64,000 nucleotides of DNA from an uncultured Myxococcaceae bacterium (GTDB taxonomy: Bacteria; Myxococcota_A; Polyangia; Polyangiales; Ga0077539): the NCBI GenBank assembly GCA_964447205.1, contig CAYUSB010000042.1:1503-65502 (forward strand), read 5' to 3'. The translations under genes and the position numbers were made by a program. The notes beneath the pieces are model-generated. The model made no database searches. It was not told the DNA's origin and saw only the letters and a program-made list of their open reading frames with translations. Below are positions 7,001 to 36,095 of the stretch, one piece after another; position 1 is the first letter of the stretch; every line of letters begins with the position of its first letter.

Positions 7001-10000
7001 ACGCGACCCCGACGGGATCACCGCCGAGGCCCCCGCGGGACCGGCCTTCCAGACTCCCTCCGAGGCCGCCGTGGGCGCGTGGCTCGACGCCCTCGACCCC
7101 GTGGTCCTCGGCCCCCTGGCCCGGGCCCGGGGGCTTCTGCGCGGCCGTTCGCTCGGCCCCAACCCCCTCGCCCGCATGCTCCGGGTCGAACCCGGCGACC
7201 GATGGACCCTGCTCCGCGACGACACCCGCGGGGTCACCGCGGTCAAGGTCCGACGGGCCTCGGGGCACGCCGTCGAGTGCACCCTCGGACGGGCCGACAA
7301 CATCGGCCGCTGCGACGTGACCCTCGTGCACGCCCTGCCCGCCGACCGACACGGGATGGCCCCCGTGGTGCGGGTGTCCCTCGCGTACGAGCGCGACCTC
7401 GGCCACGAGGCCCGCTTCCCCCGCGACGTCACCCCGGCCCGCGAGGCCGCCCTCGGAGATTTCTACCGCGCGGCCATGGTGGGCGAGGCCGACCGGGTCC
7501 CGGCGGGTCACGCGGTTCGGTCGCGGTTCACCCTCGATGCGGACTTCGTGCGGGAGTACGCCCTGGCCTCGGGCGACGCCTCGACGGCCCACCTCGGGGG
7601 ACGGGGACACGCCCACTGCATGCCCCTCAACGCGGCCTTCTCCGCGGCCTTCGCGGCGATCTTCCGCGCGACCTTCGTGCCGGACGTCGACTGGGACCCC
7701 GCCCGCCTCGTGCACCTGACCAACGAGGTTCGGGCCGTGGGCCGGGCCCTTCACGAGGGGGAGACCGTCGAGGTCGAAGCCCGCCTCACCGCCTGGGAAC
7801 CCGTCAAAGGAGGCGTCCGGGCCCGGGTAGCCGCCACCCTGCGCTGCGACGAGGCCGTGCGGGCCACGGTGGTCAGCACCTTCTTCGTGCAGGAAGCCCG
7901 CGGGACGTACCGCTTCCGCGACGAAGACCTCACCTTCGCCCTGCCCCCGGGCGACCCCGCCCGCTTCGACCTCCTCGCGGAAAAGCCCTGGCTCCGGGTC
8001 TCTGAGGGCGCCGCGATCGACCCCGATCTCGCCCACACCGTGGCCCTGCACCTCGAGACCCGCACCGAAGGCCCCCGGTCCGTCTCGACCGTGACCGGAA
8101 CCCTGCGCGACCCCGCCAGGCGCATCGTCGCCACGATCGATCACACCGAAGACCAGCGCGACGCCGCCGAGACCGAACCTGCCCGCTGGTTCGCCCATTT
8201 CGCCCCGATCTCCGACCCGGCCGTCCCCCTCCCCCAGCCCTCCATCCCCCACGTCGAGCGGGCCTTCGCCCCCTGGAACCTCCTCGAATTCGCCCGGGCC
8301 TCCCGCGACGCCAACCCCCTGCACCGCGACGCTCACGTAGCCGCCCTCGCGGGCTTCGACCGACCCATCGTACACGGCCAGTGGACGGCAGCCCGGGCCG
8401 TAGCCGCCGCCGTCACGGGCTTCGCGGCCACCGACGGAGAGCGGGTTCGGGCCATCACGGTGAACTTCACCGACACGGTCTTCCCCGGCGACGAGGTCGA
8501 GTTTCGGGCCCGCCACACGGCCATGCACGACGGCGACCTCGTGGTCGAGATCGAAGCCCGGGCCCTCGACGGGGGCGACGGCCGGCTCGCCCTGCGCGGA
8601 ACGGTCCGCATCGCGGCCCCGCGTACGGCCTACGTCTTCCCGGGTCAGGGGGTTCAGGCGACCGGGATGGGCATGGAGGGCTACGCCCGCTCCCCGGCAG
8701 CCCGCAGGGTGTGGGACGAGGCCGACGCCCTCTGCCGCGACACCCTGGGCTTCTCGCTCCTCACGGTCGTACGCGACAACCCCGTCGAGATGCGGGTCGG
8801 GCCCGAGATCCTGCGGCACGACCAGGGGGTCTTGTTCCTCACGCAGTTTACCCAGGTGGCCATGGCCGTCCTGGCCATCGCCCAGGTGGCCGAGCTCCGG
8901 GAGGCGGGGTGTTTCCAGGCCGAGGCCATGTTCTGCGGGCACTCCGTGGGCGAGTACTCGGCCATCGGGGCCGTCACCGACGCTCTGTCCCTCGCCGCCG
9001 TGGTCGAGTGCGTCTACCAGCGCGGACTCACCATGCAGACCTTCGTGCCCCGCGACGCCCAGGGCCGGTCGCCCTACCGCATGGCCGTGGTCCGCCCCAA
9101 CCTCGTCGGGCTCACCGAGTCTGCCCTCAGCGCCCTCGTGGCCCAGATCGCTCTCGACACCGGGATGCTCTGCGAGGTGGTCAACCTCAACATCCGCGGG
9201 CGCCAGTACTCCGTGGTGGGACACATCCCCGCCCTCGACCTCCTCCGGGCCCGCCTCGCCGAACGCGCCTCCCCCGGGGCCAAACCCGCCTACCTCGAGG
9301 TCCCGGGCATCGACGTGCCCTTCCACTCGGCGGCCCTGCGCTCGGGGGTCGCGGCCTTCCGCACGAAGCTCGACGCGTACATGCCCCCCGACCTCGACCT
9401 CCGGGCCCTCGTGGGCCGGTACATCCCCAACCTCGTGGCCCGCCCCTTCGCCCTCACCCGCGACTACCTCGACGCCGTGGCCGAGTGCACCGGGTCGCCC
9501 GTCCTGGCCGACCTGCAAACCCGCTGGAACTCCGCGGGATATGCCCCCGATGACCTCGGGCGGACCGTCTTCATCGAAGGCCTCGCGTATCAGTTCGCCT
9601 CGCCCGTCCGCTGGATCGAGACCCAGGACATCGTGCTCGCCCGCGACCGCTCGGGGGTCTCTCGGGTCATCGAGATCGGCCTCGGGGCGGCCCCCACCCA
9701 GGCCAACATGTTTCGGGCCACCCTGGCCGCCGACCCCTCCCGGCTCGATCCGCCCGCCGTGTACAACCTCGAAGCCGACCGCAAGGCTGTCCTCTCCCTG
9801 CACGACCCCGACGCCCAGGAGGCCCCTTCCGCCCCCCGCGACGCGGCCCCCGAAGCGGAGACCCCCAAGAGCCCCGCCGCGGCCCCTGTGGCCCCTGCTG
9901 CGGCCCGCGGACCCATCTCCGATGCCCCCTTGTCCGTACGCGACGCCCTCGCCACCCTCCTGGCCCTCAAGGCCCGGATCCGGGTCGACGAGGTGCGCCC

Positions 10001-13000
10001 CGAGGAGAGCATCGAGGTCCTCTTCGGCGGAAACTCCTCCAAGCGTAATCAGGTGATGGCCGACCTCGGGGCGGAGTTCGCCGTGGCCGCCATCGACGGG
10101 GCCCACGAGATGGCCTTCCTCGCCCTCGTCGAGGCCGTCGAGCGAGCCACCGGGGGGCGCTACCAGGCCCAGGGCCCCTACCTCCGGGCCCAGATCACCG
10201 CGGCCCTCAAACCCTACGGCCTCAGCCTCCGCGAGGCCCTCGCCGCCTTCACCGCCCGAGGGTTGCCCGAGGGACGTTCGCTCGCCCTCCTCAACCGCGT
10301 GGCCCTGTGGCTCCGCCCGGGTGACTCCACCCGGGCCGGAACCCTCTCCCCCGTCCCTCCGCCCAAACCCGGGGATCGTGGAGCCGCGGCCCAGTGGCTC
10401 GACGCCGCCCTCGCCCGCTACGCCCAGGACGAGGGCCTCGCCCTCGGGGGCCCGGCCGAAAGCTCCGGCTCCAACGCCGTCGACGGCGCGGCCCTGGAGA
10501 AGCTCCTGGCCCGGTACTTCGGGGTCGGAGGGGCCTTCCTGGAGACCCTACGGTTCGCCGAGGCCGCCCTCGGCCGCGACGTGTGGGCCGAGCTCGCGGT
10601 GAAGGACACCCCCACGGCCGACGCCGAGCGCCTCCCCCTCTTCGAGGCCGAACACGGCGAGACCTACGAGGGCGCCATCCGCCCGGCCTTTTCGAGCGAC
10701 AAGGCCGTGGTCTTCGCCGGGGCCTGGGCCTGGTCTCGGCGCGAGGCCCTCGGGCTCTACCACCGCCTCCGGGCGGGAGACACGGCGGGCGTCACCGAGT
10801 CGGTGGGCCGCATCGCCCGCGGGGCCGACGAGGCCACGGCCCGCACGGTGGTGTGGCTACGCGACCGGGCCCAACGCGCGGGAGACGAGGCCACGGGAGC
10901 GGTGTTCGCCGGGCTGCTCGACCGCATCGACCCGCGGGCCCAGCCCCGGGCCGAGAGCGCGGCCGTGCCCCTCGAACCCGCGGTGGAGGTTCTGTCCGAC
11001 GGACGCCTCACCGACTACGAACGCCCCCGCGGAACCCCGTCCCCCCTGGGCCTCGCCGACGAGCTCCTCGCGGGCCACCACGCCCGCCTGCGGGCCCACG
11101 GCCACGAGCCCCGCCCCGAGGTAGAGGCCGTCTACGCCGAGGCCCTGCGCGCCCTTGCGGGGGGTTCGGTGAGCTTCGCCGGGCGTACGGCCCTGGTGAC
11201 CGGGGCCTCCGACCGCTCGATCGCCATCGAGCTGGTGAAGCTCCTCCTGACGGGCGGGGCCCGGGTGGTGGTGACCACCTCGCGGCTCAGTCCCGAGCGG
11301 GTGCGTTTCTACCGCAGGCTCTTTCAAGCCCACGGGGCTCGCGGGGCGGAGCTGGCGGTGGTGCCGTTCAACCAGGGGTCGCGGCAGGACATTCAGGCCC
11401 TCGTGCACTGGCTCGTCTCCACCGAGAAGACCGTCGTGGGCGGAACCCAACGAACCGTCAAAGAACCCTGGCTCATCGACCTCCTCGTTCCCTTCGGGGC
11501 CGTCGGGGAGGAGGCCACTCTCGCAGAGATCTCCGACCGCTCGATGGCCACGCTTCGGGTGCTCCTGTACGGGGTCGAGGCCCTGGTGAGCGAGTGCGCC
11601 CGGGCCTTCTCGCGGCTCCACGTCCGCGAGACCCGAACCCACGTGATCCTGCCCCTGTCGCCCAACCACGGGCAGTTTGGCAACGACGGGCTCTACGGCG
11701 AGGCCAAGGCCGCCCTGGAGACCATGCTCAACCGTTGGGGCTCCGAGCAGGCCGCCTGGGGGCGACACACCTCCGTGGTCGGGGCCCGCATCGGCTGGGT
11801 CCGCGGGACGGGCCTCATGAACGTCAACAACGCCATCGCCCCCGGCCTCGAAGCCCGGGCCGGAGTGCGTACCTTCTCCGCCGCGGAGATGGCCCTGGGG
11901 CTTGGGGCCTGCTGCGTCGACGCCGTCCGCGACCTCGCGGCCGAGGGTCCCCTCGTGGCCGACCTCACCGGCGGCATGGACCGCGTCCGCGACCTCGCCG
12001 GCATCGCCCGAACCCTGCGCGCTGAGCTCATGGCCCAGGTGTCCCGGGCCCGCCGTCTGCACGGCCTTCGTGCCGAGGAGGACCGCGCCCTCGGACGCCG
12101 TCCCCCCGCGGTCCGTCACGTCACTCCGTCGCCGCGGCTCGCGGGGTATTTCGCCTTCCCCGCGCTGCCCTCCCCCGCACGCCGGGCTTCCCTGGCTGCC
12201 CTTCGGGGCCTCGACCTGTCGCGGGTCGTGGTGATCGTAGGCCTCGGCGAGATCGGCCCCTGGGGCGGGTCGCGGCCCCGTTGGTCGATGGAGTCGACGG
12301 GCGAGCTGTCGGTCGAGGCCTGCGTGGAGCTGGCCTGGATGACCGGGCGCATTCGTTACGAGCGCAGCCGGCAGCACGTGGGCTGGATCGACGCGGCCAC
12401 GCGAGAGCCCATCGAGGGTCACACGGTGAAGGCCCGCTACGAGGAGGCCATCACCCGCGACGCGGGGATTCGTCTCGTCGAGCCGACCGACCCGGGGGCC
12501 CTCGACCCCCGCAAGCTCACGGTGTGGGCCGACGTGGCCCTGGAGCAGGACTTTGTGTTCCCGGTGCCGGGACGGGCGGACGGGGAGGCCTTTGTGGCCG
12601 CGGCCGGGGACGGGGCGCGGCTCATCTTCGACCCCGAGCGAGACGGCTGGTTCGTCGTGCGGCGCAAGGGAACGGTGGTGAAGGTGGCCCGGGCCGCCCG
12701 CCTCAACCGCTACGTGGCGGGGCAGATCCCGACGGCCTGGGACCCGGTGCGGTACGGGATCCCCAAGGACCTCGTCGAGCAGGTCGACCGCACGACCCTC
12801 TTCAACCTCATCGCCACGGTGGAGGCCTTCCTCTCGGCCGGCCTCGAACCCGAGGAGTTGTACGAGTACCTCCACCCCGCGGACGTGGGCTCCACGCAGG
12901 GAGCGGGCATCGGCGGGATGCAGAAGCTCCGTCGCCTGTACCTCGACCACACCCTGGACCGCCCCCGTCAGGGCGACGCCCTCCAGGAGACCCTCATCAA

Positions 13001-14378
13001 CGTCACGGCCGCGTGGATCGTGCAGAGCCTCGTCGGCAGCTACGGGCCGATGTCGCACCCGGTGGGGGCCTGCGCCACGGCGGCGGTGTCGATCGAAGAC
13101 GCCGCGGACAAGGTGTTGGGGGGCAAGGCGGCCTTCGTGGTGGCGGGGGGTTTCGACGACTACGGCGAGGAGGGAGCCCTGGGCTTCGCCGACATGGCCG
13201 CGACCTGTGACAGCGACGACATGTTGGCCCGGTCGATCCCCCCGCGGGAGATGTCGCGCCCCAACGACCGCCGCCGCCGCGGCTTCGTCGAGGCCCAGGG
13301 AGGCGGGACGGTGCTCGTCGCCCGGGCCGACCTCGCGGTTCGGATGGGGCTCCCGGTGTATGCGGTGGTGGCCCTGGCCCGGTCGTACGGCGACGGGATC
13401 CATCGCAGCATCCCGGCTCCAGGCCCTGGGGTCATGGCCGTGGCCGCCGAACGACGGGCCCGCCCGGGCGAAACCACCGGCGAGGCCTTGTGCGACCTCG
13501 GGGCAAGGGCTGCGTCGTGGGAGGCCTTCGCGGCCGAGCTCCCGGCCCTCGCGGCGACGCTCGGAGAGGAGCGGGCCGAGGCCCTCGCCCGGAGCGAACG
13601 CCGACGTCTCTTCCACGACTTCGCCGACGGCGACCCGCGGGTGTCCCCGCTGCGACGGGCTCTGGCGACCTATGGGCTCGGCCCCGACGACGTGGCCGCG
13701 GCGTGGAAACACGACACCTCCACCGACGCCAACGACCCCAACGAGAACCGCGTCTACGACCGCATCTTCCGCTGGCTCGGCCGCTCCCCGGGGAACCCCC
13801 TCGTAGCCGTCTCGCAGAAGGCCCTGACGGGTCACTCCAAGGGCGGGGCTGCGGCGTGGCAGGTGGCGGGTCTGTGCCAGGCCTTGTCCGCGGGCATCCT
13901 GCCGGGCAACCCCAACCTCGACGACCCCGACCCCACGATGCGGGCGTTTGAGACGATGTGTTTCACCGACGCCCCGCTGGCCCTTGGGCCGGATGGATTC
14001 GAGGCGGGCATGGTGACCTCCCTGGGGTTTGGCCACGTGGGCGGGGTCGTGTGCCTCGTGCATCCGGACCGGGTTCTCGGGGCCCTCGACGACGGGGCCT
14101 TTGCCCGCTACGGGGAGGCCCGGGCGGCCCGGGAGCGTCAGCGCCTGCGCGACGAGCTGGCGGTGTACGAGGGGACGCGGCCTGCGGTTCGGATTCGGAC
14201 GGAGAAGGCGTTTGTGGTTCCGGCCGACCCGCAGTATGCGGGGCTCGATGCGGAGCAGGCGGTGCTGCTCGACGCGGCCTCGCGGCGCCTGACCCCGGGC
14301 GGACCCATCGTCGCGGGCGGGGTAGCCGCGGCCTTCCTTCCTCCTGAGGCCCCTGTGGCTTCACCGCCGGATTTCTGA
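4035..14378 (+). CDS. fas: Type I fatty acid synthase, single 3447-aa chain with fungal/CMN-bacterial domain order AT - ER (FMN TIM-barrel) - DH - MPT - ACP - KR - KS
   Basis: The order is read directly from the motifs. There is an N-terminal acyltransferase GHSQG, then an enoyl reductase block (FLPGMTPTT...GGGQVTE...GGKAGGHHSWEDL), a hot-dog dehydratase (PLHRDAHVAALAGFDRPIVHGQW), a second transferase GHSVGEYSA, an ACP (FGGNSSKRNQVMADLGAEF), a KR Rossmann segment (VTGASDRSIAIELVKLLLTGGARVVVTTS), and a KS with active-site Cys (HPVGACATAAVSIEDA). From memory it is collinear with M. tuberculosis/Corynebacterium FAS-I. A GGAG lies 7 nt upstream of the ATG. Confidence 0.9.
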   Translation: MRSSEVSPPLADRPHGPRDPAESRHYTARAAAPPLFAALRTHEARVAIVFGGQGAPWLPALRELHGAHLSVRALVRGATERLRASASDPRLGALATPARGFDLARWIDDPAAAPPDDVLSSSLVSQAGIFLTSVARSLAMAERGFDLDTLAARATAATGHSQGIMAALLFAEGHGPEALVRRAGEFASYFFWQGYRMQESFVRAAVAPAVRAAAEQAGIGDPTPMAAVAGMNHALLTEALGRFHAANPQLPPLDVSLDNGYARKVLSGPPPSLVAFARSLAAARTAEIADFARGRLGRRPIEFVWEFVAASAPFHSRYMDYGRRALPDDLAREGIRFDPGALGLPVLGNDGGDLRSFADGPSLLDALLRMQFVEPMRWPAVCAALRESHPAGITHVLDYGPGDAVARLTALNCRGFGVHVFPLATEAGRREVSLPVPELPRGVDYRRFAPTLRRTAAGEVVLDNAFRRFTGRAPIFLPGMTPTTTEAPLVAAAANAGFVSELAGGGQVTERHLRLRAKELSESLAPGAAYVVNLLYLDPYLWNLHWKGEGLVRRLRAEGHPIEGITVSAGVPDLAEAREIVEACRAAGIGLVSFKPGTTKQIQAVLEIARACPELTLGVQVEGGKAGGHHSWEDLRDLVRTSYHQVRALPNVVLSVGGGIRTEADAWEWLSGRWSERLGLAPMPVDAVFVGTLAMVAREACTSPSVKALLARTEGTEAWVAHGATRGGMTSGKSQLDADIHYVDNTAARVGKMLDEVAGDPAAVVARKDEIVAALARTAKPYFGALTEMTHAAVLRRAVDLMAIGRGTDYDDGPWPDPSYRQRVFDLAARFEETLCPAPGPSLLGGLDDLDDPGAFVARFVARYPEAERVTLSQSDADFFVHRVCARPGKPVNFVPALDGDVRRWYKSDALWQSHDDRYDADQVLVIPGPEAVQGITAVDEPIGAMLGRFVAYGVDQLLAAGHTPADPVDRTADAELDRAAAALGLSLGRDPDGITAEAPAGPAFQTPSEAAVGAWLDALDPVVLGPLARARGLLRGRSLGPNPLARMLRVEPGDRWTLLRDDTRGVTAVKVRRASGHAVECTLGRADNIGRCDVTLVHALPADRHGMAPVVRVSLAYERDLGHEARFPRDVTPAREAALGDFYRAAMVGEADRVPAGHAVRSRFTLDADFVREYALASGDASTAHLGGRGHAHCMPLNAAFSAAFAAIFRATFVPDVDWDPARLVHLTNEVRAVGRALHEGETVEVEARLTAWEPVKGGVRARVAATLRCDEAVRATVVSTFFVQEARGTYRFRDEDLTFALPPGDPARFDLLAEKPWLRVSEGAAIDPDLAHTVALHLETRTEGPRSVSTVTGTLRDPARRIVATIDHTEDQRDAAETEPARWFAHFAPISDPAVPLPQPSIPHVERAFAPWNLLEFARASRDANPLHRDAHVAALAGFDRPIVHGQWTAARAVAAAVTGFAATDGERVRAITVNFTDTVFPGDEVEFRARHTAMHDGDLVVEIEARALDGGDGRLALRGTVRIAAPRTAYVFPGQGVQATGMGMEGYARSPAARRVWDEADALCRDTLGFSLLTVVRDNPVEMRVGPEILRHDQGVLFLTQFTQVAMAVLAIAQVAELREAGCFQAEAMFCGHSVGEYSAIGAVTDALSLAAVVECVYQRGLTMQTFVPRDAQGRSPYRMAVVRPNLVGLTESALSALVAQIALDTGMLCEVVNLNIRGRQYSVVGHIPALDLLRARLAERASPGAKPAYLEVPGIDVPFHSAALRSGVAAFRTKLDAYMPPDLDLRALVGRYIPNLVARPFALTRDYLDAVAECTGSPVLADLQTRWNSAGYAPDDLGRTVFIEGLAYQFASPVRWIETQDIVLARDRSGVSRVIEIGLGAAPTQANMFRATLAADPSRLDPPAVYNLEADRKAVLSLHDPDAQEAPSAPRDAAPEAETPKSPAAAPVAPAAARGPISDAPLSVRDALATLLALKARIRVDEVRPEESIEVLFGGNSSKRNQVMADLGAEFAVAAIDGAHEMAFLALVEAVERATGGRYQAQGPYLRAQITAALKPYGLSLREALAAFTARGLPEGRSLALLNRVALWLRPGDSTRAGTLSPVPPPKPGDRGAAAQWLDAALARYAQDEGLALGGPAESSGSNAVDGAALEKLLARYFGVGGAFLETLRFAEAALGRDVWAELAVKDTPTADAERLPLFEAEHGETYEGAIRPAFSSDKAVVFAGAWAWSRREALGLYHRLRAGDTAGVTESVGRIARGADEATARTVVWLRDRAQRAGDEATGAVFAGLLDRIDPRAQPRAESAAVPLEPAVEVLSDGRLTDYERPRGTPSPLGLADELLAGHHARLRAHGHEPRPEVEAVYAEALRALAGGSVSFAGRTALVTGASDRSIAIELVKLLLTGGARVVVTTSRLSPERVRFYRRLFQAHGARGAELAVVPFNQGSRQDIQALVHWLVSTEKTVVGGTQRTVKEPWLIDLLVPFGAVGEEATLAEISDRSMATLRVLLYGVEALVSECARAFSRLHVRETRTHVILPLSPNHGQFGNDGLYGEAKAALETMLNRWGSEQAAWGRHTSVVGARIGWVRGTGLMNVNNAIAPGLEARAGVRTFSAAEMALGLGACCVDAVRDLAAEGPLVADLTGGMDRVRDLAGIARTLRAELMAQVSRARRLHGLRAEEDRALGRRPPAVRHVTPSPRLAGYFAFPALPSPARRASLAALRGLDLSRVVVIVGLGEIGPWGGSRPRWSMESTGELSVEACVELAWMTGRIRYERSRQHVGWIDAATREPIEGHTVKARYEEAITRDAGIRLVEPTDPGALDPRKLTVWADVALEQDFVFPVPGRADGEAFVAAAGDGARLIFDPERDGWFVVRRKGTVVKVARAARLNRYVAGQIPTAWDPVRYGIPKDLVEQVDRTTLFNLIATVEAFLSAGLEPEELYEYLHPADVGSTQGAGIGGMQKLRRLYLDHTLDRPRQGDALQETLINVTAAWIVQSLVGSYGPMSHPVGACATAAVSIEDAADKVLGGKAAFVVAGGFDDYGEEGALGFADMAATCDSDDMLARSIPPREMSRPNDRRRRGFVEAQGGGTVLVARADLAVRMGLPVYAVVALARSYGDGIHRSIPAPGPGVMAVAAERRARPGETTGEALCDLGARAASWEAFAAELPALAATLGEERAEALARSERRRLFHDFADGDPRVSPLRRALATYGLGPDDVAAAWKHDTSTDANDPNENRVYDRIFRWLGRSPGNPLVAVSQKALTGHSKGGAAAWQVAGLCQALSAGILPGNPNLDDPDPTMRAFETMCFTDAPLALGPDGFEAGMVTSLGFGHVGGVVCLVHPDRVLGALDDGAFARYGEARAARERQRLRDELAVYEGTRPAVRIRTEKAFVVPADPQYAGLDAEQAVLLDAASRRLTPGGPIVAGGVAAAFLPPEAPVASPPDF

Positions 14379-14384
14379 GCTGCC

Positions 14385-14786
14385 ATGATCGTTGGCATCG
14401 GCCTCGACACCGTCGACCGCGGGCGCTTCGAGCTCCTCCTGCACGAGCCTGGGAGCGCCTTCGCGGCCCGCACCTTCACCCCGGGCGAGCGCCACGCTGC
14501 CGCGGGGCGTCCGTCGGGCGATCCCGTGCGTCACCTCGCGGCCCGTTATGCTGCGAAGGAGGCGTGCGTGAAGGCCCTGTCGCAGTCGCTGGCTCCGGGG
14601 CCGCTGCCGGTGGCCCTGGCCGACCTCGCCGAGATCGAGGTGGTGTGCGACGACGACCACCGCCCGTCGCTGGCCCTGCACGGCCGGATGCGGGCCCTCG
14701 CGGAGCAGGCCGGGATCACGGCCCTGCACGTCTCGCTCAGCCACGACGGGCCCGTGGCCACGGCGATGGTCGTCGCGGAGCGCTGA
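14385..14786 (+). CDS. acpS: Holo-[acyl-carrier-protein] synthase (4'-phosphopantetheinyl transferase, AcpS type)
   Basis: 133 aa beginning MIVGIGLDTVDRGRFELLL and continuing ...YAAKEACVKAL, the AcpS family signature. It starts 7 bp after the fas stop, the same fas-acpS arrangement found in Corynebacteriales. Confidence 0.85.
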   Translation: MIVGIGLDTVDRGRFELLLHEPGSAFAARTFTPGERHAAAGRPSGDPVRHLAARYAAKEACVKALSQSLAPGPLPVALADLAEIEVVCDDDHRPSLALHGRMRALAEQAGITALHVSLSHDGPVATAMVVAER

Positions 14787-14789
14787 GGT

Positions 14790-14891
14790 TCGGCGCTGCA
14801 ACAGGCTGCGGGCGACGGGCTGCGGGCGACGGGCTGCGGGCAGCGGGCTGGGGGCGACAGGCTGCGGGCTGGGGGCGACAGGCTGCGGGCT
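14790..14891. repeat. G-rich tandem repeats (about seven copies of GGGCGACGGGCTGC-like 14-mers) immediately 5' of MITE copy 1
   Basis: Read directly from the sequence. Similar G-rich short tandem repeats (GGGCGAC/GAGGGCG units) precede the other three MITE copies at about 19570-19623, 30030-30057 and 39343-39389. Confidence 0.5.
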
Positions 14892-15055
14892 GCGAAACCG
14901 CAAGGGCGCAAGGGTCGCAAGGGCCAGAAGGGTTTGTGGGTCGGAGGGCGGCGTGCCCCCCCTCGTTGGCGGCGCACCGCACACGCGCCGCGCTGCACCT
15001 GCTCGATACCACCCCGCAGGTTCGGCCCTTGCGACCCTCGCGCCCTTGCGGTTTC
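14892..15055. repeat. Miniature inverted-repeat element, copy 1 (164 bp): 35-bp terminal inverted repeats GCGAAACCGCAAGGGCGCAAGGGTCGCAAGGGCCAG ... CTGGCCCTTGCGACCCTCGCGCCCTTGCGGTTTC
   Basis: The two arms are exact or near-exact reverse complements of each other. The element lies in the intergenic region after acpS. Further copies are at 19624-19837, 30058-30242 and 39390-39562. Confidence 0.6.
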
Positions 15056-15169
15056 TTTCTCTCCAGCCTCCCGCGCGCGTCCTGTCCTGCAATGAGGGAG
15101 AAACCTCGGTGCGGATGCATCCCGCGCAGACAGCGTTACATTCCAACGCGTCGCACGGGAGGATCGCCC

Positions 15170-15949
15170 ATGACCTGGAACCTTGACTACGACGCTCCCC
15201 CTGGGTGGAGCACCCAGGCGTTGGGGCCGCTCACGCTCCACGGCTCGCCCGACACGTCGCGGGCTGTGTTCGTGGGGCGGGCGATGTACCAGCGCTTCGA
15301 CGAGGCCCTGGCCGCGGCGGCGGCCCTCTCTCACTCCCTGGGGCTCCAGACCACGGGCGTGATCGCGCCGCCGACCGACACCGTGATCGCAGGGATGCGC
15401 GCGACGTCGGCCTCGTACGCGGGCCTCAACGCCGCGGGCTTCCCCGCCCAGGGGCGCCTCGTCGTGCTCTTTACGCCCTACGGAACGAGCCTCGTGTTCT
15501 TCGGGGTGAGTGACCCCTACGCGGCGGCGGAGGTCGCCGACGTGATCGCCCGCATGGCCGCGTCCACCCGCGCGGGCCCGCCCACCCCTGACCCGACCGC
15601 GGTGCGGGGCCTCGCCGGGCGCTGGGTCTACCACGACGGGAACTTCAACCGCTCGGCCACGGCCACCTCAAACCGCGGGGTCGAGGCGACCCTCCTGCTC
15701 GACGGGAGCGGGGGGTTCCAGTTCGTGTCGAACAGTTGGATGAGCATCGACGTACGCCGCGTGCCCGCGGGCGAGGCCCCCATCGACCTCGGCGGGGCCG
15801 ACTCCTCGCGCAGCGTAAACGACGCCGGGCAGTACACCGTGATCGGCCGCGAGGTGGTGTTCCGCGGCGCCCAGGGGCAGCTCGTGTTGCCCTACTCCCT
15901 CCAGGGCGCGGCCCTCACCCTGGGGACGACCACGTACCTGCGGCAGTAG
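15170..15949 (+). CDS. Hypothetical protein, 259 aa, no signal peptide
   Basis: ATG at 15170 with a GGGAGG Shine-Dalgarno 8 nt upstream, and natural amino-acid composition (MTWNLDYDAPPGWSTQALGP...). I recognised no family. Confidence 0.45.
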   Translation: MTWNLDYDAPPGWSTQALGPLTLHGSPDTSRAVFVGRAMYQRFDEALAAAAALSHSLGLQTTGVIAPPTDTVIAGMRATSASYAGLNAAGFPAQGRLVVLFTPYGTSLVFFGVSDPYAAAEVADVIARMAASTRAGPPTPDPTAVRGLAGRWVYHDGNFNRSATATSNRGVEATLLLDGSGGFQFVSNSWMSIDVRRVPAGEAPIDLGGADSSRSVNDAGQYTVIGREVVFRGAQGQLVLPYSLQGAALTLGTTTYLRQ

Positions 15950-16124
15950 TCGATGGGACCGCGTGGACAGGCGCGGCCGGTCACCACGCCAGGGCCCCCG
16001 TCGGATGCCCTTCGCCCACGGAGCCGGGTCCGCATCCGCGCGGTGGAGAGGCACCGCCCGCGGCCTCCGTCCGGGGACGTGTTGGACAACCGGAGACCAC
16101 AGGGGTACTGCTCCTCCCACTGCC

Positions 16125-17126
16125 ATGCACGCTGCGGTTCGGTCCGGTGCGCTCGTCGGGGGGGCCGTCGGGGTCGCGTTGATCGCCCTGGTCGGGACGC
16201 TGCGCTTCGAGGCCAGCGCGGAGGGGGCAAACTCTCCAGCACCCATGAATCAGCCATGGATCGTCCAGATCCCCACCGAACCGCACGTCAGCTTCCGCCC
16301 GTGGCGCGAGGTGATCGGGGAGCCGTCCCTGTCGTCGTGCGAGCGGTCGGACGTCCCCGATCGGAGCAGCTCCACCACCTGCTCGCGAATGCTCGGCGCT
16401 CTCTCTCTCATCGACCACAGCCACGGCTCTAGCGGCGGAACATTTCGCTGGCTCATGCTGGGGCATCCGACGCGGTCCGTTGGGCAGTGCGAGCTCTCTT
16501 CGATCGGCCATCAGCGGCTCGGCTCACACTCCCCCCCGTTCTCGTGGAGCCGCAGCGGAGACCTGCTCTACGCGCACGACCCGCGCCGCGACCTGCACGG
16601 CTACCGCTGCGTGGCATCGACCGAGCGGGGGCCGGTCACGGAGTGGACGCTGTGGATCTACGCGCCCGACGCCGAGAGGCTGCGCGGGTTGAGCGACGTG
16701 TGGAGCGCGTCGCGACCGCTGGTCCCGTACGCACGCCTCGCGGCCGCGCTCCTGCTCGTCTGCGCGACGATCATCATGGCCCGCCAGGTGCGGCGCGACC
16801 GTCTCGACGCGCTCCCCTGGCGGGAGGCAAAACGCGGCGCAGATGGTGTGTTGCGGCTCGGGGAGGACGTCGTGCAGACCCCTACCGCGGACGCCGCCGT
16901 GACAAAGGCCGACGCGGTGTGCGTGGTGGTCGCCGACGAGCAGGACAGCGGGATCTATCGGACCGCGGCGACCGTCACGGCCGTCCGGGTTCGGGTCGGA
17001 TCACACGACGTGCACCAACGGGCAGGTCGGTGGGCGCGTCGCAGGAGCGCGGTCGTCGCAGTGGCGCTCGCTGCGGCGTCGGTCGCGGCGTCGGCGTGGC
17101 TGATCGTGCTGTCGCTGCGCCGGTAG
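16125..17126 (+). CDS. Secreted/membrane-anchored protein, paralogue A: N-terminal signal/TM, variable Cys-containing ectodomain, near-identical C-terminal half with a C-terminal TM
   Basis: MHAAVRSGALVGGAVGVALIALVGTL... is a paralogue of 18298..19323. The two are about 95% or more identical from SWSRSGDLLYAHDP to the end and divergent between residues ~30-150, with four conserved Cys. Confidence 0.5.
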   Translation: MHAAVRSGALVGGAVGVALIALVGTLRFEASAEGANSPAPMNQPWIVQIPTEPHVSFRPWREVIGEPSLSSCERSDVPDRSSSTTCSRMLGALSLIDHSHGSSGGTFRWLMLGHPTRSVGQCELSSIGHQRLGSHSPPFSWSRSGDLLYAHDPRRDLHGYRCVASTERGPVTEWTLWIYAPDAERLRGLSDVWSASRPLVPYARLAAALLLVCATIIMARQVRRDRLDALPWREAKRGADGVLRLGEDVVQTPTADAAVTKADAVCVVVADEQDSGIYRTAATVTAVRVRVGSHDVHQRAGRWARRRSAVVAVALAAASVAASAWLIVLSLRR

Positions 17127-17465
17127 GCTGCGCCCCCCGGGGGCCGTCTTGGCGCATCGTCGCGGGGGTCAGCGTTGACATCGAGCGCGCAGACAACGGC
17201 AACGGGCGCGCAGCGAGGGGAGTGGTCAACCGTGCCCACCGCCGGCTTCGCCTCGCGGTACGGACGGAGGCGTGCACCGACGGAGAGCTGCACGGACCGC
17301 GGCGGGACCACGACGCTGGGGACGGCATCGGCCCGCCCCCGTCCCCCGTCGCGGGCCTCCCGCAGCCGGGCGGCTGCTCGACGCTGGGGCAAGCGCGTGC
17401 TGGCTCGGCGGTCTGCGTGTGAGCCGAGTGGCCTCCGCGCCGACTGGGATGGTAGCCTTTGTGGC

Positions 17466-17708
17466 ATGAGCTCCGCCGCTCCTGTCCTCCCCTCCATTGA
17501 CCTCGAGGCCGTGCGCGACGCCCTCCGCCCGATCCCCGGCATCACCGAGGTGCGCCTCGTCGGCGCCGACCTCTGGATCATTCGGGACGAGGTCGACGTG
17601 GCGCGCGACTACCAGATCAGCCACGCGCTCGGCGACCTCGTCGAGGACTACCAGACCGTGACCGCCGCGCGCCGCAGGATGGTGCCAGAGGGGCTCCGTG
17701 TCCTCTGA
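17466..17708 (+). CDS. Small hypothetical protein (~80 aa); its stop overlaps the start of the next gene by 11 bp
   Basis: MSSAAPVLPSIDLEAVRDALRPIPGITEVRLVGADLWIIRDEVDVARDYQISHALGDLVEDYQTV... has natural composition. It lies between the two paralogue copies. Confidence 0.35.
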   Translation: MSSAAPVLPSIDLEAVRDALRPIPGITEVRLVGADLWIIRDEVDVARDYQISHALGDLVEDYQTVTAARRRMVPEGLRVL

Positions 17709-18099
17709 CCGAGAACTCACGATCGAGGACCATCTGCGCCTCGCCGAAGAGCTCTTCGCGCTCGCTGCGTGGGGCGCTGCCGCGCGACCCGACGACGGGC
17801 TCGCCGTGGGATGGGCGGTGACGCAGGTATTCTACGCGGCGGTGCACGGTCTGTCGGCCTGCGTCCTCGCGCGCCACGGCGTCCGCGCCCCGGCGCATCA
17901 GGACCGCGGCCGTTGGTTCGCAGAGTACCCCGAGTTCCGCAAGAGCGAGGCCTGGGACTATCGCGGGTTGAAACGGGCGAGTGAGGAGTCGCGCTACCAG
18001 GGCGTCCCCTACACCGCCGCGCAGTACGCCGCGCACCGCACGACCGCGGAGCGCCTGTTGGCGCACTGGGCGGCGATGGCGCGAAGGGGCCGAGGATGA
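17698..18099 (+). CDS. Small hypothetical protein (133 aa), translationally coupled to the preceding gene
   Basis: MSSDRELTIEDHLRLAEELFALAAWGAAARPDDGLAVGWAVTQVFYAAVHGLSACVLARHG... is helical with natural composition. I could not establish a convincing HEPN or other motif. Confidence 0.4.
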   Translation: MSSDRELTIEDHLRLAEELFALAAWGAAARPDDGLAVGWAVTQVFYAAVHGLSACVLARHGVRAPAHQDRGRWFAEYPEFRKSEAWDYRGLKRASEESRYQGVPYTAAQYAAHRTTAERLLAHWAAMARRGRG

Positions 18100-18297
18100 G
18101 GGGTCGGGACGCAGCATGGCAGGCTGGTCGTGCCCACCGAACAGAACGCCTGGGTGCGGCAGGTGCTCGGCCCAGAGCGCGTCGCCCTCTGTCCGAGCCT
18201 TCGGCGCCGATCCTGACGTGCCAGCAGGGCTCCGCGGCCCCGCCCGGGGACGCGTTGGACAACCGGAGACCGCGGGAGTACTGGTCATCCCACTGCC

Positions 18298-19323
18298 ATG
18301 CACGCTGCGGTTCGGTCCAGTGCGCTCGTCTGGGGGGCCGTCGGGGTCGCGTTGATCGCCCTGGTCGGGACGCTGCGCTTCGAGGCCAACGCGGAGGGGG
18401 CGACCTCACCAATGATCGCGGATCGCGCGAGGCTCTCCGAGGCGCCCGCTGGAGCGCAGATCAACTTCCGCTCGTGGCGTGAGGTGATCGGGGAGCCGCC
18501 CCCATCCTCGTGCGAGAGTCGGCAGTTCGGCGGCTCGGCAGCCTATTCCGGCGGCTCCAGGACGTGCCAACGGGCGCTCGGCGTGCTCCATCTCGTCGAC
18601 GACGACGTGAGCTCCGGCGGATCCCGGGGCGGCAGCAGCTCTCGCACGATCACGCTGGAAAGCGCGACGCCGTTGTTGGGCCGGTGTGAGGTGTCCGCTA
18701 GCGGCCACGATTACAGCACCCCTGCCCCCTACCCGAGTTCGTGGAGCCGCAGCGGGGACCTGCTCTACGCGCACGACCCGCACCGCGACCTGCACGGCTA
18801 CCGCTGCGTGGCATCGACCGAGCGGGGGCCGGTCACTCAATGGACGCTGTGGATCTACGCGCCAGACGCCGAAACGTTGCGCGGGTTGAGAGACGTGTGG
18901 AAGACATCGCGTCCGCTCGTGCCCTACGCGCGCCTCGCGGCCGCGCTCCTGCTCGTCTGCGCGACGGTCGTCGTGGCCCGCCAAGCGCGGCGCGACCGAC
19001 TCGACGCGCTCCCCTGGCAGGAGGCGAAGCGCGGCGCGGATGGTGTGTTGCGGCTCGGGGAGGACGTTGTGCAGACCCCAACCGCGGACGCCGCCGTGAC
19101 GAAGGCCGACGCGGTGTGCGTGGTGGTCGCCGACGAGCAGGACAGCGGGATCTATCGGACCGCGGCGACCGTCACGGCCGTCCGGGTTCGGGTCGGATCA
19201 CACGACGTGCACCAACGGGCAGGTCGGTGGGCGCGTCGCAGGAGCGCGGTCGTCGCGGTGGCGCTCGCTGCGGCGTCGGTCGCATCGTCGGCGTGGCTGA
19301 TCGTGCTGTCGCTGCGCCGGTAG
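18298..19323 (+). CDS. Secreted/membrane-anchored protein, paralogue B (tandem duplicate of 16125..17126)
   Basis: MHAAVRSSALVWGAVGVALIALVGTL... The C-terminal ~200 aa are nearly identical to paralogue A. About 40 bp of the 5' flank and about 250 bp of the 3' flank are also duplicated. Confidence 0.5.
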   Translation: MHAAVRSSALVWGAVGVALIALVGTLRFEANAEGATSPMIADRARLSEAPAGAQINFRSWREVIGEPPPSSCESRQFGGSAAYSGGSRTCQRALGVLHLVDDDVSSGGSRGGSSSRTITLESATPLLGRCEVSASGHDYSTPAPYPSSWSRSGDLLYAHDPHRDLHGYRCVASTERGPVTQWTLWIYAPDAETLRGLRDVWKTSRPLVPYARLAAALLLVCATVVVARQARRDRLDALPWQEAKRGADGVLRLGEDVVQTPTADAAVTKADAVCVVVADEQDSGIYRTAATVTAVRVRVGSHDVHQRAGRWARRRSAVVAVALAAASVASSAWLIVLSLRR

Positions 19324-19623
19324 GCTGCGCCCCGGAGGGGCTGTCCTGCCGCATCATCCAGGCTGTCGGCGTTGGCACCGAGCGCGCAGACGACCGCTGC
19401 GAGTGCGCGCAGTGAGGGGAGTGGTCAACCGTCCCCACCGCCGGCTTCGCCTCGCGGTACTGACGGAGGCGGGCACCGACGGAGAGCGGCACGGTCCGCA
19501 GCGGGAGCACGAGGTTGGGGACGGCGTAGGCCCGCGCAACACCGCCCACCCAACGGCCTCCGACCCCAATAGGCGACGAACGGCGGGCTGCGAGCGGCGG
19601 GCTGGGGCGACGGGCTGCGGGCT

Positions 19624-19837
19624 GCGAAACCGCAAGGGCGCAAGGGCCGCAAGGGGCAGGCGGTTTTGTAGGTCGGACGGCAGCGTGACCCCCTCGACGC
19701 TTCGCGGGCGAAAGCGCCCTGGTCTGCAACCCCTGCTCCCCCGCGCCGACCTTCGCCTGCCCGATGCCTCCCCTCACGTCCGCGTTTCCCCCTACAAAAC
19801 CTTCTGGCCCTTGCGACCCTTGCGCCCTTGCGGTTTC
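19624..19837. repeat. Miniature inverted-repeat element, copy 2 (214 bp)
   Basis: The same terminal inverted repeats as copy 1 (GCGAAACCGCAAGGGCGCAAGGGCCGCAAGGGGCAG ... CTGGCCCTTGCGACCCTTGCGCCCTTGCGGTTTC). It lies between convergent genes. Confidence 0.6.
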
Positions 19838-20073
19838 TTTCTCTCCGCCCTCGGGCTGCGCCTCCCGGACTGGGGGCGTACTCCACCGACGCCCACCCCT
19901 GGCTTCGCCTCGCGGCACGGACGGTCTTCCCCTCCTGCCGCCCCTGCCGAACCGCCCGCAACAGGTCGCCCAGCGCGTGCAGGAGCTGGACCTTCCAAGC
20001 GGTGGAAGACCCGCGCGTCCTGTCCTGCAGTGAGGGGGAAGCCTCGGTGCGGATGCATCCCGCGCAGACAGCG

Positions 20074-22050
20074 TCAGGGGTCGTCGACGAGGGCGTCGAG
20101 ACGTGCGCAGAGGGCCTTGTGTACGTGCCCCGCGATGCGGCCGTAGTGGCCCCGGAGCGCGGGGGCGATGCGCCGGGCGAAGGCCACGAAATCCGGGTGC
20201 CACTCCCGATCGAGGAGATAGCCGACGATGTCGATGTCGTCGTCCTCGGGCGTCACCTCGTCGCCCAGGGCGAGGTTCAACAGCGTGAGGAAGTCCGCGC
20301 GGTCGCGGTCATCCCATGGGGTCTTGGGGAAGAGGTCGAGCACAAAGGCGAGTCGGCCGTCGGCGGCGGCGAGGGCCTGCGGGCGCAGCGTACGGATGGC
20401 CTCCCACTCGGCCGCGGTGAGCACCGGCGCGGAGGCAGGGACCGCGGCAGCAGCCTCGGCGGCGCGGGTGGCCTGAATCAGGGCCTCGCCCTGCGCGAAG
20501 AAGTACCAGGGTAGGTCGCCGCTGCGATGCTGGATGGCCGCGACGGCGGTCTTCAACTCCAACGGCCGCGTGATGCGCCCCGCGACGAGGTCGGCCCGCA
20601 CGAGCTCCAAAAACCGCCCCGACAATTCTCGGGAGGACAGCACCACGGCGCGTAGCCCCGGGTCGGCGTAGAGGCGCTGGAGAAACATCGGCATCGGGCC
20701 ATCGCGGCGGGGCACATAGAGCCCCTCGATGCGCTGCTCCAGAGCCCAGGCCATCGCCGTCGTCGAGCGCCGTCGCGTCAGGATCCGATCGACGAGCGCG
20801 CCCCGGGCGCGGGCCGGGAGCAGGGCCGCAGCGCCGCGGTGGTCGAAGAACGCGACCAGCGAGGTCTCGTCTCCGTCGTCGCCGTCTTCGGTCCAGGCTT
20901 CGAGCATCCTCGCGCGAAACGCCTTCGGGAGCCGTTCGGTCCCGATGCACTTGAGGGACTCCTGCACCGCCGTCGACGCCGAGCCTGCGCCCAACTCGGT
21001 CACGAGGTCGACCCAAGGTCGCACCGACCGCCCGGCGGGCCACAGCGCGTCGAGCCCCGCGCCGTGAAGCAACGACCACAGTTGGAGCGAGGGGCGGTCC
21101 GGGTCCTCCTGCCGATGCGCCCAGCGCACGAGGCCGAGCACGCAGCGCGCCCGATGGGCCGCAGCGGTGCCCCGCACGGCGCGAAAGTATCCCTCGAGCG
21201 CGCGCGTAAACGTGTGGTCGAGTCCCCACCCCTCGACGAGCGCGAGCACGGTGTCGAGCGTGCCGGGGCGCGCCCCGAGCGCGAGGAGTGTGCTTGGGGC
21301 CCGCGGGTGAAGGTCGCCGGTGGCGTTGAGGACGGCCCGGGCGTGGTCGAGCAGCAGCCGGGTGGGCAACGCCGCAAGGGCCTCGGCGTAGTCGGTGTCG
21401 GTGGGCGGAGGAGGCTGGGCGTTGCCGAGGCTGCGCGGGGCAAAGGCGTCGCAGACGACCTTCACCGGTCCCCGGAGGCGCTTGAGCCCCGCAGGGCGCT
21501 GCCCGGCGAAAGGGTCGGCGGCGAACGCGCTCTGCCAGAAGGCCACGGCGTGTGTCTTCAGCAGGCGCTCGAGGGCGGTCTGTTTGACCCTGTCGTCGCC
21601 GTCTCGGGCCAGGTGGGTGAGCGCCGCGATGCCGACGGGTCTGTGCGTGGGGGCGGCCGCGGCGACGGCGTAGCGGATGTCGCCCAAGGTGTGCTCGCGG
21701 AGCTGCGTGACGAGCGCGTCGCACGCGTCGGGGGCGCGCAACAACCAGTGCTGGAGCGCCGCGGAGAGGTACCGTGGGTCAGTCTGAAAGAGGCCGTCCG
21801 CCTCGCCCAGGCGTTCGAGCGCCTTGAGGGCGCGCAGGACCCGATCGGCGGCGTCGGGGGTGGGCGTGATGCCGAGGAGCGCGATCTCCATGCGGAGGAG
21901 CGCCATGGCGAGCCAGCAGTCGGCGCGACGCTCGCGGTGGAGGGTGGAGTGGGCCCGCGGTGCGGCCTCGTAGGCTTCGAGGTAGGCGTAGGCCCAATCG
22001 AAGGCCGACGCGAGGTCGCGGAGGGTCGGGGCGAAGGGGCGGGCGATCAT
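20074..22050 (-). CDS. Large hypothetical alpha-helical protein (~658 aa), last gene of the ArsA-pair operon
   Basis: Start MIARPFAPTLRDLASAFDW... at ATG 22050..22048. This ATG overlaps the TGA stop of the upstream gene (ATGA), which supports that start over the longer ORF 20074..23193, whose extension is Arg/Pro-rich. Leu/Ala/Trp-rich, with no recognised family. Confidence 0.55.
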   Translation of the reverse strand: MIARPFAPTLRDLASAFDWAYAYLEAYEAAPRAHSTLHRERRADCWLAMALLRMEIALLGITPTPDAADRVLRALKALERLGEADGLFQTDPRYLSAALQHWLLRAPDACDALVTQLREHTLGDIRYAVAAAAPTHRPVGIAALTHLARDGDDRVKQTALERLLKTHAVAFWQSAFAADPFAGQRPAGLKRLRGPVKVVCDAFAPRSLGNAQPPPPTDTDYAEALAALPTRLLLDHARAVLNATGDLHPRAPSTLLALGARPGTLDTVLALVEGWGLDHTFTRALEGYFRAVRGTAAAHRARCVLGLVRWAHRQEDPDRPSLQLWSLLHGAGLDALWPAGRSVRPWVDLVTELGAGSASTAVQESLKCIGTERLPKAFRARMLEAWTEDGDDGDETSLVAFFDHRGAAALLPARARGALVDRILTRRRSTTAMAWALEQRIEGLYVPRRDGPMPMFLQRLYADPGLRAVVLSSRELSGRFLELVRADLVAGRITRPLELKTAVAAIQHRSGDLPWYFFAQGEALIQATRAAEAAAAVPASAPVLTAAEWEAIRTLRPQALAAADGRLAFVLDLFPKTPWDDRDRADFLTLLNLALGDEVTPEDDDIDIVGYLLDREWHPDFVAFARRIAPALRGHYGRIAGHVHKALCARLDALVDDP

Positions 22051-24086: not shown

Positions 24087-24119
24087 TCGGACGTCGCGGG
24101 GCCCCGCCCATCACTGCCA

Positions 24120-27183: not shown

Positions 27184-27258
27184 CCGTCACGCGGCGTCAA
27201 TGCGGGTCACGGGTTGACCCCGGACGGGATCGCACAGAGTCTCCGTCCACGGCACACC

Positions 27259-29979: not shown

Positions 29980-30057
29980 ACCCCAGGGGCCCGGTCCGCG
30001 CAGGAGGGCCCACACGCCCAGGCTCGCACCGCGAGGGCGGAGGGCGGAGGGCGGAGA

Positions 30058-30242
30058 GCCGCAAGGGCGCAAGGGTCGCAAGGGCCAGACGGGAATTTTT
30101 TGGGGGGTCGGACAGGCGAGGGTCGGCGTTGGGGGAGTGGTATTGCACACGAGGGCACCGTCGCCAGCGCGACGTCGAGGGGGTTACGCCGCCCGATCCC
30201 CCCACAACACCTCGTTGCCCCTCGCGACCCTTGCGGCTTCGC
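30058..30242. repeat. Miniature inverted-repeat element, copy 3 (185 bp; shorter right arm)
   Basis: GCCGCAAGGGCGCAAGGGTCGCAAGGGCCAG ... CCCTCGCGACCCTTGCGGCTTCGC, preceded by GAGGGCG x3.5. It lies between a convergent gene pair. Confidence 0.55.
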
Positions 30243-30292
30243 TGTCGGTCACTCGTAGCCCGCAGCCGGGGAGATCCGCACCCGCCGCCCGG

Positions 30293-33250: not shown

Positions 33251-33555
33251 CGCGGTGCCACCTCCCGCGGCGGAGTCTCACTGCATCGCCGCGCGGGCAG
33301 ACTCTAGGGGCACCCGACCCCCCTTGACCAGAGCGAGGGACACCGCGGGAGGGCCGCCACGAACCACGCAAAACGCCCATGGGACGCCCCGCTCACCATG
33401 ACTTTGTTGCACGGCCCGCAGGGTCGAGATTTCTCGATTGCGCACGCCGCGCCTTCTGTTTTAGGGCCCTGCGGCAGCGAGGCCACTGGGGCCTGTCGCC
33501 CTCCAGGCGGCGGGTCGGGTCCAGGGTCTGTTCGTCCTCTCAAGGGGTTTATCTG

Positions 33556-34110: not shown

Positions 34111-34161
34111 TCCCTGCCGCGTGGGGTGGGCGGAAGTGAATCCCGCCCCCCCCACAAGCCG

Positions 34162-35256: not shown

Positions 35257-35318
35257 AGGGTGGCGCTACATAGCGCATGTCCCCCCCGGCGTCACCCTCC
35301 CCCGTCGCACGAAAACGA

Positions 35319-35927: not shown

Positions 35928-36095
35928 GTACGCCTTGCCGACCCAATACCGAAGACGATGACGGTCCACCTGGGCAATACCCTCCGTAAGCTCCCCGGGT
36001 ACCAACACCCGCCCTCGGGCGCAAGACCCCGCGGCACCTTTCGCCCCGTGGGTGGTATAGGACCTCCCCCTCTCTCCCGGAGCTCGACCCCCCCA

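Follow-up and report, generated by a model that had tools for sequence, protein, structure and literature searches.

Palindromic intergenic elements in a Polyangiales contig and their likeness to arm-flanked GxxExxY gene cassettes

A stretch of 64,000 nucleotides from an uncultured Myxococcaceae bacterium (NCBI GenBank assembly GCA_964447205.1, contig CAYUSB010000042.1, positions 1,503 to 65,502 of the forward strand; hereafter the window), whose closest named relatives are metagenome-assembled genomes (MAGs) of Polyangiales, holds four copies of a short intergenic element bounded by inverted repeats, here called arms. What kind of element is this, and how did it come to lie between the genes where it is found? 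The window elements form a new family, although its kind, that of small palindromic intergenic insertion elements, is a familiar one. Furthermore, an inverted-repeat class of the same design exists across phyla, and its arms are strongly associated with genes for GxxExxY proteins. The members of this class are either about 450-600 bp long and carry a GxxExxY gene, or 70-250 bp long, devoid of an open reading frame (ORF), and scattered through intergenic DNA. With moderate confidence and no more, we read the window copies as ORF-less elements of the class to which these GxxExxY cassettes belong, palindromic almost from end to end, which an arm-recognising protein would have copied or moved in trans.

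The original prediction placed four copies with inverted arms at 14892-15055, 19624-19837, 30058-30242, and 39390-39562, and the sequence, the repeat search, and a shuffle test all confirmed them there. The repeat search grouped the four copies as one direct family (D6) and found inverted-repeat pairs within elements, I9 (61 nt, 87%), I20 (47 nt, 91%), and I22 (51 nt, 80%). The two-unit arm motif CGCAAGGGNCGCAAGGG, allowed up to 3 mismatches, had 15 matches in the window against 2.6 expected, a count that was reached in none of 100 shuffles, and the four loci held 13 of the 15. Tandem repeats finder (TRF) detected G-rich arrays at 14804-14894, 19577-19626, 30033-30056, and 39349-39388, which bears out the G-rich tandem repeats predicted beside every copy, and at copy 4 it also detected a C-rich mirror array (39547-39622). 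The copies are discrete and do not belong to a duplicated block of larger size: beyond the arms, copies 1 and 2 cease to be similar within about 30 nt, and a nearby tandem duplication (16067-17336/18240-19535) excludes the copies, ending some 40 nt short of the heptad array of copy 2. The gene context was judged from third-position GC, Pfam, and the gene calls of the source contig. Copy 1 lies between co-directional genes (acpS, whose stop is at 14786, upstream and the next start at 15170), convergent gene pairs surround copies 2, 3, and 4, and none of the four interrupts a coding sequence; the predicted context, three of four copies between convergent genes and no gene broken, thus agreed with the gene calls.

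Each element measures about 220-290 bp. It extends beyond the predicted coordinates, although these pointed to the right loci, because the flanking heptad repeats belong to the element. An arm consists of three tandem 9-nt CGCAAGGGN units preceded by (G)AACC or (G)AGCC. The elements have a polarity, in that copies 3 and 4 must be reverse-complemented to align with copies 1 and 2, and when they are oriented alike all copies show the same order of G-rich heptads (GGGCTGC/GGGCGAC), arm, inner stem, centre, complementary arm, and C-rich tail. The inner stem extension reads GGTTTTGTGGG...CCCACAAAACC, after which GGCGGCGTG pairs with CACGCCGAC. The palindrome runs inward beyond the 35-nt arms; the core had been predicted as variable, which it is, and as 100-150 bp long, whereas the truly asymmetric centre comprises only about 60-100 nt.

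Copy 1, on the plus strand, begins with a heptad array of GGCTGCG/GGCGACG with a period of 7/14 (14804-14894). Its left arm, GCGAAACC followed by three CGCAAGGGN units, occupies 14892-14927, the inner stem extension and the asymmetric centre 14928-15023, and the right arm 15024-15055, from which the tail TTTCTTTCTCTCC runs to about 15085. The centre of copy 1 is shorter than that of copy 2 because of internal deletions. Copy 2 (19624-19837, plus strand) is preceded by its heptad array (19577-19626), has its left arm at 19624-19659, then the centre, and its right arm at 19804-19837, and ends in the tail TTTCTCTCCGCCCTC at about 19867. Copy 3 (30033-30250) is on the minus strand, inverted relative to copies 1 and 2; its full arm lies at 30058-30093, and 3.4 repeats of GAGGGCG (30033-30056) complement its C-rich tail. 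The arms, which had been described as near-perfect inverted repeats, are indeed near-identical, except that the right arm of copy 3 (30215-30242) has lost one unit and is shortened to two. Copy 4 (39342-39615), likewise inverted relative to copies 1 and 2 and on the minus strand, is a complete inserted unit as judged from its folds and from empty sites in relatives; its arms lie at 39390-39425 and 39527-39562, and on their outer sides stand heptad arrays that mirror each other.

The predicted folding of the arms into a hairpin was supported by RNA folding, which gave long hairpins in all four copies (z of -6.1, -10.0, -4.8, and -3.7). Copy 2 folded as RNA at -157 kcal/mol (z -6.1) and copy 4 as DNA at -122.6 kcal/mol (z -10.2), whereas lone arms folded like shuffled sequences (z -0.47, 0.12, and -0.01). 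The four copies show 4 compensatory stem pairs, such as AGCC/GGCT in copies 3 and 4 where the other two copies have AACC/GGTT. In 73 elements of the Polyangiales type, the left and right arms agreed at variable columns with a frequency of 0.68-0.89, against 0.47-0.72 expected. As a separate observation, the four elements, which make up 1.75% of the bases of the window, contain 7 of its 63 canonical G-quadruplex motifs (G3+N1-7, four runs), at 14810-14932, 19599-19621, 30065-30093, 39346-39440, and 39591-39615; the motif fits both the arm, with GGG every 9 nt, and the heptads, with GGG every 7 nt.

How an element arrived can be followed best at copy 4. The sigma-54 activator beside it has an ortholog with 88% protein and 81-84% DNA identity on the JGI contig Ga0183872_10799231 (locus L178), which is collinear with positions 31800-50375 of the window at 81-86% nucleotide identity. 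At L178, the two convergent stop codons stand 5 nt apart (TGA-CCTTC-TTA), and in a more distant Polyangiales MAG (L188, 72% protein identity) they stand 4 nt apart (TGA-CCCC-TCA). The corresponding stops in the window (TGA and TCA) are separated by 274 nt (39342-39615), and this spacer consists wholly of the palindrome and the heptad arrays. The spacing of 4-5 nt is therefore the ancestral one, and copy 4 is an insertion with the limits 39342-39615, which arrived between two convergent stop codons. No target-site duplication was recognisable at copy 4 against the empty sites of L178 and L188, although a divergence of 16-28% limits the resolution of this comparison. In the approximately 190 kb of relatives' loci (L188 excluded), no multi-unit arm was found, and three two-unit matches with 2 mismatches were isolated and unpaired. 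For more than 85 kb, one relative with about 83% nucleotide identity is without the element family.

A third relative (L180, 74%) shows something else at the convergent junction of sigma-54 activator and kinase genes where copy 4 lies. There, an unrelated 458-nt palindrome (11430-11887) has 179-nt arms that are 92% complementary and a 100-nt centre. Different palindromic elements have struck this junction at least twice.

The position of the elements also invites a view in which they never moved, being RNA elements retained by host selection as bidirectional terminators, mRNA 3' stabilisers, or RNase III sites. Their stems are very stable, they stand directly past stop codons, with convergent genes on both sides of three of the four, and a T-rich tail (TTTCTTTCTCTCC-type, on the plus strand only) is present in copies 1 and 2; moreover, the intervening sequences (IVS) of rRNA, which are cut by RNase III, share the anatomy of a stem around an optional ORF (PMC4990558). 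Yet close relatives need only 4-5 nt between the same convergent genes and do without the element family altogether. Copies 3 and 4 have no T tract, and in a simple scan for terminators a 5-bp sub-stem was all that was flagged in copy 1 or any other copy, the total of 4 being at the level of shuffled sequences (3.8). No Rfam match was obtained over the whole window at gathering thresholds. We give this explanation only a small chance of being right. A function gained after insertion is compatible with the reading that we favour: the inserted stem of about 60-100 bp would form at the 3' ends of flanking transcripts, where, as a side effect and not as its raison d'etre, it may stabilise or terminate them or open them to RNase III. 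Such roles are speculative, since the T-rich tail occurs only in copies 1 and 2 and the scan did no better than shuffles.

The other three copies have no clean empty site, because each coincides with a break in the synteny of relatives. In the closest syntenic relative (L186), 48 nt separate the acpS stop from the next conserved ORF, against 12.46 kb in the window. The 12.46-kb segment (14787-27247) absent from L186 has copy 1 at its left edge and copy 2 within it, and the genes at 20074-24086 sit on another contig of the relative (L181). In four relatives, homology stops 4-12 nt past the stop codon of a molybdopterin oxidoreductase gene, just before copy 3. The acpS gene before copy 1 belongs to a pair of genes for a type I fatty acid synthase (FAS) and AcpS. 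The window is contained in the ENA metagenome contig ERZ27284381 k139_400128 (74.5 kb). The Logan assembly of SRR8863431 has the same FAS-AcpS genes, and its contig SRR8863431_59765 stops inside the heptad array of copy 1, 49 nt past the acpS stop, which is the sort of break that repeats typically cause in assemblies.

The original prediction hinged on the arm being repeated beyond these four loci, and it is. An exact-pattern scan with one genome per species found the arm in at least 94 stretches of other genomes, from Polyangiales and other Myxococcota, mostly as short hairpins without an ORF. Among the 80 stretches listed, Sorangium So ce513 accounted for 28 and So ce375 for 23, and the remainder came from further Sorangium strains, Byssovorax, MAGs of Polyangiales and Myxococcota, and a few MAGs with other labels. 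Adjacent plus/minus arm pairs in the arm-carrying loci enclosed at most 115 nt in 66 of 69 cases, and the loop in Sorangium was typically 28 nt. The centre of the window type was absent from the 94 arm-carrying loci, the combined pattern of centre and arm had no match in the JGI metagenomes, and the arm pattern had none in viral contigs. Variant forms occur in Sorangium and other Myxococcota (L004 5903-6173, L005 4395-4533, L030 3600-3840, L079 3060-3240, and L047 6590-6810), with either a (GAGATGA)n microsatellite in the hairpin loop or three to four tandem arms of the same orientation plus one opposite arm; the tandem arm arrays have a period of 43-90 nt.

Across some 750 kb of arm-selected loci, the ORFs found between paired arms were all GxxExxY genes, apart from a single ATPase gene. 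Two long arm pairs have, within or beside them, ORFs with matches to TIGR04256 'GxxExxY protein' (E ~1e-40) and PF13366 PDDEXK_3. The window's own arm sequence brackets a GxxExxY ORF at two loci, L068 and L098. The L068 cassette (5228-5772) lies in a type I restriction-modification operon, with hsdS on one side and hsdM on the other; the arm at L098 is GAAACCGCAAGGGCGCAAGGGTCGCAAGG, identical with that of the window, and the L098 protein is 84% identical to that of L068. At L047 the same arm sequence stands on both sides of the ORF but is contributed by neighbouring hairpins, and at L002 the arms on either side of the ORF are built alike but from a different unit, AACCGCCAAGACGCCAAGACGCCAAG.

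The association was quantified with 80 metagenomic GxxExxY loci collected from at least 502 matching relatives, 76 of which had usable flanks; intervals shifted within the same loci served as decoys. An inverted repeat scoring at least 17 bracketed the ORF at 58 of the 76 loci and at 0 of 175 decoys, and with a score of at least 14 the numbers were 64 of 76 and 1 of 175. The cassette arms almost always consist of (T)(G)AACC and about three purine-rich units of 8-9 nt, the commonest unit being GCCAAGNN and others ACAGAGG, GCAGAGG, ACGAAGG, GCAAAGG, and GCGAAGG. In the 53 cassettes with clean ends, the median length was 524 nt, the median distance between arm and ORF was 61 nt upstream and 28 nt downstream, the AACC ends pointed outward, and the flanks often prolonged the palindrome; a target-site duplication was found at none of these cassette ends. 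Over all loci, the size distribution of arm pairs had two modes, at 50-250 nt where no ORF was enclosed and at 450-600 nt where the ORF was. Several metagenomic loci have ORF-less hairpins of the same unit beside cassettes. Since the centres of the window copies, at 60-140 nt, hold no ORF and have no tblastn match, the copies are placed as ORF-less relatives of the cassettes, comparable to the short forms of Sorangium, Gemmatirosa, and the metagenomes.

Cassettes of this design also occur in named genomes. In Bacteroides finegoldii (L189, 2430-2900), radA is followed by a cassette with the arms TTCACCACAGAGGACGCAGAGGACACGGAGG; in Sphingomonas parapaucimobilis (NZ_CP155749.1; L190, 2450-2911), a cassette with the arms CACGCGAAGGCGCGAGGACGCGAAG lies between fabD and fabG; and 40 kb of Gemmatirosa kalamazoonensis hold four ORF-less hairpins, two of which flank a GxxExxY ORF. 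The cassettes of L068, L189, and L190 are within tens of nucleotides of neighbouring genes. In addition, the GxxExxY frames of L068 (5269-5793, minus strand) and L098 (1399-1914, plus strand) are open through the left arm (ETARAQGSQG), with possible starts upstream, and the annotated GxxExxY coding sequence of Sphingomonas reads through the right arm. GxxExxY proteins gave only marginal matches to Cas4 and DRT-type PDDEXK models in PADLOC, and no solved relative was found by sequence in the PDB.

In the mechanism that we propose for the favoured reading, an arm-recognising protein would copy or move the elements in trans, and it might do so by binding three tandem sites in each arm or by recognising a hairpin or cruciform. 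The best candidate mobiliser would be the GxxExxY nuclease, with its PD-(D/E)XK fold, by analogy with the pairing of repetitive extragenic palindromic (REP) doublets and their transposases, the REPIN-RAYT system. A wider proposal is that GxxExxY proteins could be the trans-acting nucleases of a pan-bacterial mobile-DNA system, the cassettes being autonomous and the ORF-less hairpins non-autonomous substrates; we put it forward tentatively, as something possible that we are inclined to doubt.

Several observations weigh against the mobile reading of the window copies or against the part given to the GxxExxY protein. Only copy 4 has a clean empty site, and insertion of copies 1 to 3 is inseparable from rearrangement. 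Neither a target-site duplication nor an excision footprint nor a transposition intermediate was seen, tblastn found no GxxExxY gene in the window, and the centre of the window type is confined to the window, so that the known copy number of this lineage is four. The function of PF13366 is listed as unknown (PMC3424549). Among cassettes with minority arms, the nearest protein neighbour had arms of the same class in 9 of 23 cases, which shows that arm type tracks protein phylogeny weakly; for this reason we do not claim that a particular protein recognises a particular arm. Protein and arms may not be co-evolving, and the ORF may be a passenger or parasite of pre-existing hairpins.

This last point can be developed into an explanation of its own, in which an independent hairpin repeat family is spread by host recombination, replication slippage, or another enzyme, and the GxxExxY gene is a homing-type parasite or passenger that enters the hairpin loops or settles beside them. 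Besides the poor coupling of arm type to protein phylogeny, it accounts for the ORFs that sit between two complete hairpins at a minority of loci (L139, L047, L125, and L191), for the ORF-less hairpins that far outnumber ORF-bearing ones among stretches selected for the arm motif, and for the cassette flanks that often prolong the palindrome as if the cassette had been inserted into an existing hairpin. In most of the 53 clean-ended cassettes, however, the ORF is held inside one arm pair with AACC outward and at consistent distances, which suggests that the ORF belongs with its arms as one unit. Across phyla the design also recurs with lineage-specific units, which is hard to obtain without a shared recognition mechanism. 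We consider this explanation unlikely.

The original prediction called the family MITE- or REP-like. [quoted passage not shown] Bacterial MITEs, which include Correia/NEMIS, ERIC, and RUP (reviewed in PMC10969869 and PMC3184786), are similar in being small, intergenic, and ORF-less, in their terminal inverted repeats, in their strain-variable presence, and in transcript folding that may affect neighbouring genes. The window copies could accordingly be imagined as internally deleted derivatives of DDE elements (for example IS630-like) or of IS110-like elements, moved by the transposase of the parent, and their several copies fit such an origin. The IS110- or IS630-like transposase suggested as the cognate enzyme was not borne out, since no IS with these arms, whether of the DDE type or another, was found in the window or in the approximately 750 kb of arm-carrying loci. 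The window does contain an ORF with an IS110-family Transposase_20 domain (61982-62959, plus strand; PF02371, E 7e-12), apparently a fragment, but no CGCAAGGG arms were found near it, and IS110 elements are not known to have long terminal inverted repeats. Target-site duplications, which had been proposed as something to look for, were seen neither at copy 4 nor at the 53 cassette ends. Furthermore, the window elements are almost wholly palindromic, whereas MITEs have short inverted repeats around unique DNA. A classical MITE origin thus seems to us very improbable.

REPINs are hairpin-forming extragenic inverted doublets that occur together with RAYT transposases (Bertels & Rainey 2011, PMC3116915). 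The anatomy described there matches in many respects: the doublets are short, extragenic, and abundant, at tens or more copies per genome, they form long hairpins, and they adjoin and flank a small single-domain gene of nuclease type; the repeat sequence is lineage-specific, and target-site duplications are absent. If the window elements were themselves such doublets, moved by a Y1 (IS200-like) REP-associated transposase, palindromic arms and a Y1 gene would go with them. Instead, each arm is a tandem direct repeat of three 8-9-nt units after an AACC end, is not individually palindromic, and does not fold on itself (z ~0), unlike REPs. No Y1_Tnp match was obtained among the 35 window ORFs scanned, a subset of its genes, and the gene flanked by arms elsewhere encodes a PF13366 protein with the PD-(D/E)XK fold in place of the Y1 transposase that is RAYT. 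GxxExxY cassettes also look multi-copy and occur inside operons, whereas RAYTs have been described as single-copy. True membership of the REPIN-RAYT system is barely probable at all.

Two further systems offer likenesses. The IVS of 23S rRNA, known for example from Coxiella, are 100-450 nt long and bordered by complementary ends whose pairing gives a stem of about 28 bp; they may or may not contain an S23p ORF and are regarded as selfish elements of unknown origin (PMC4990558). The window elements and cassettes similarly have complementary ends that form a stem around nothing or around a small ORF of unknown function, but the window copies and the cassettes examined lie outside rRNA genes, conserved 23S motifs were found in no cassette locus, and the ORF of IVS encodes a four-helix bundle in contrast to the PD-(D/E)XK protein of the cassettes. 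Since the cassettes have no rRNA context, the link to IVS is an analogy. With IS200/IS605-type and other mobile DNA that recognises hairpins, the elements share the absence of a target-site duplication and a likely importance of DNA secondary structure at the ends; unlike that type, they have no Y1 or TnpB gene, and their ends are long perfect inverted repeats and not subterminal imperfect hairpins.

Full-text searches found no description of these arms or of the cassette architecture, subscription-only papers and curation notes being outside their reach. In the window, the elements explain assembly breaks, mark points of insertion and rearrangement, and provide several genes with a strong hairpin at the 3' end. 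Beyond it, one cassette design is shared by Myxococcota, Bacteroidota, Alphaproteobacteria, Gemmatimonadota, and many metagenomic lineages, sometimes inside conserved operons (fabD-fabG and hsdS-hsdM), and the regular association of arms with GxxExxY genes gives a testable functional idea for a widespread protein family annotated by a motif only. If the functional link holds, hairpin elements with a PD-(D/E)XK gene would amount to a new variation on the REPIN-RAYT theme, a functional analogue built on a different nuclease fold, and might explain the origin of IVS-like elements with a stem around a small ORF. The association of arms and gene also suggests that, next to REPIN-RAYT, bacteria have a second class of small mobile DNA in which a hairpin element is coupled to a nuclease.

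Some neighbouring features of the window were recorded in passing. The region upstream of copy 1 (4035-14786, plus strand) encodes a 3447-aa type I FAS of the fungal/actinobacterial style, followed by a holo-acyl carrier protein synthase, and is kept in L186. Between copies 1 and 2, the genes duplicated in tandem (16067-17336 and 18240-19535) encode hypothetical proteins and are 90-92% identical at an offset of about 2.2 kb. Next to copy 4, a 904-aa fusion of Ser/Thr kinase, globin, and alpha/beta-hydrolase (36627-39341, plus strand) adjoins the FHA sigma-54 activator gene in four relatives. An 841-aa ORF (30752-33277, minus strand) has a major-vault-protein shoulder, Vault_3 repeats, and a weak SPFH match, and is kept in L178. 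Finally, arrays with a period of 18 nt at 49135-49566, 50145-50486, and 33634-33741 are mutually reverse-complementary (families D1 and D14; inverted pairs I3-I8) and are probably coding repeats.

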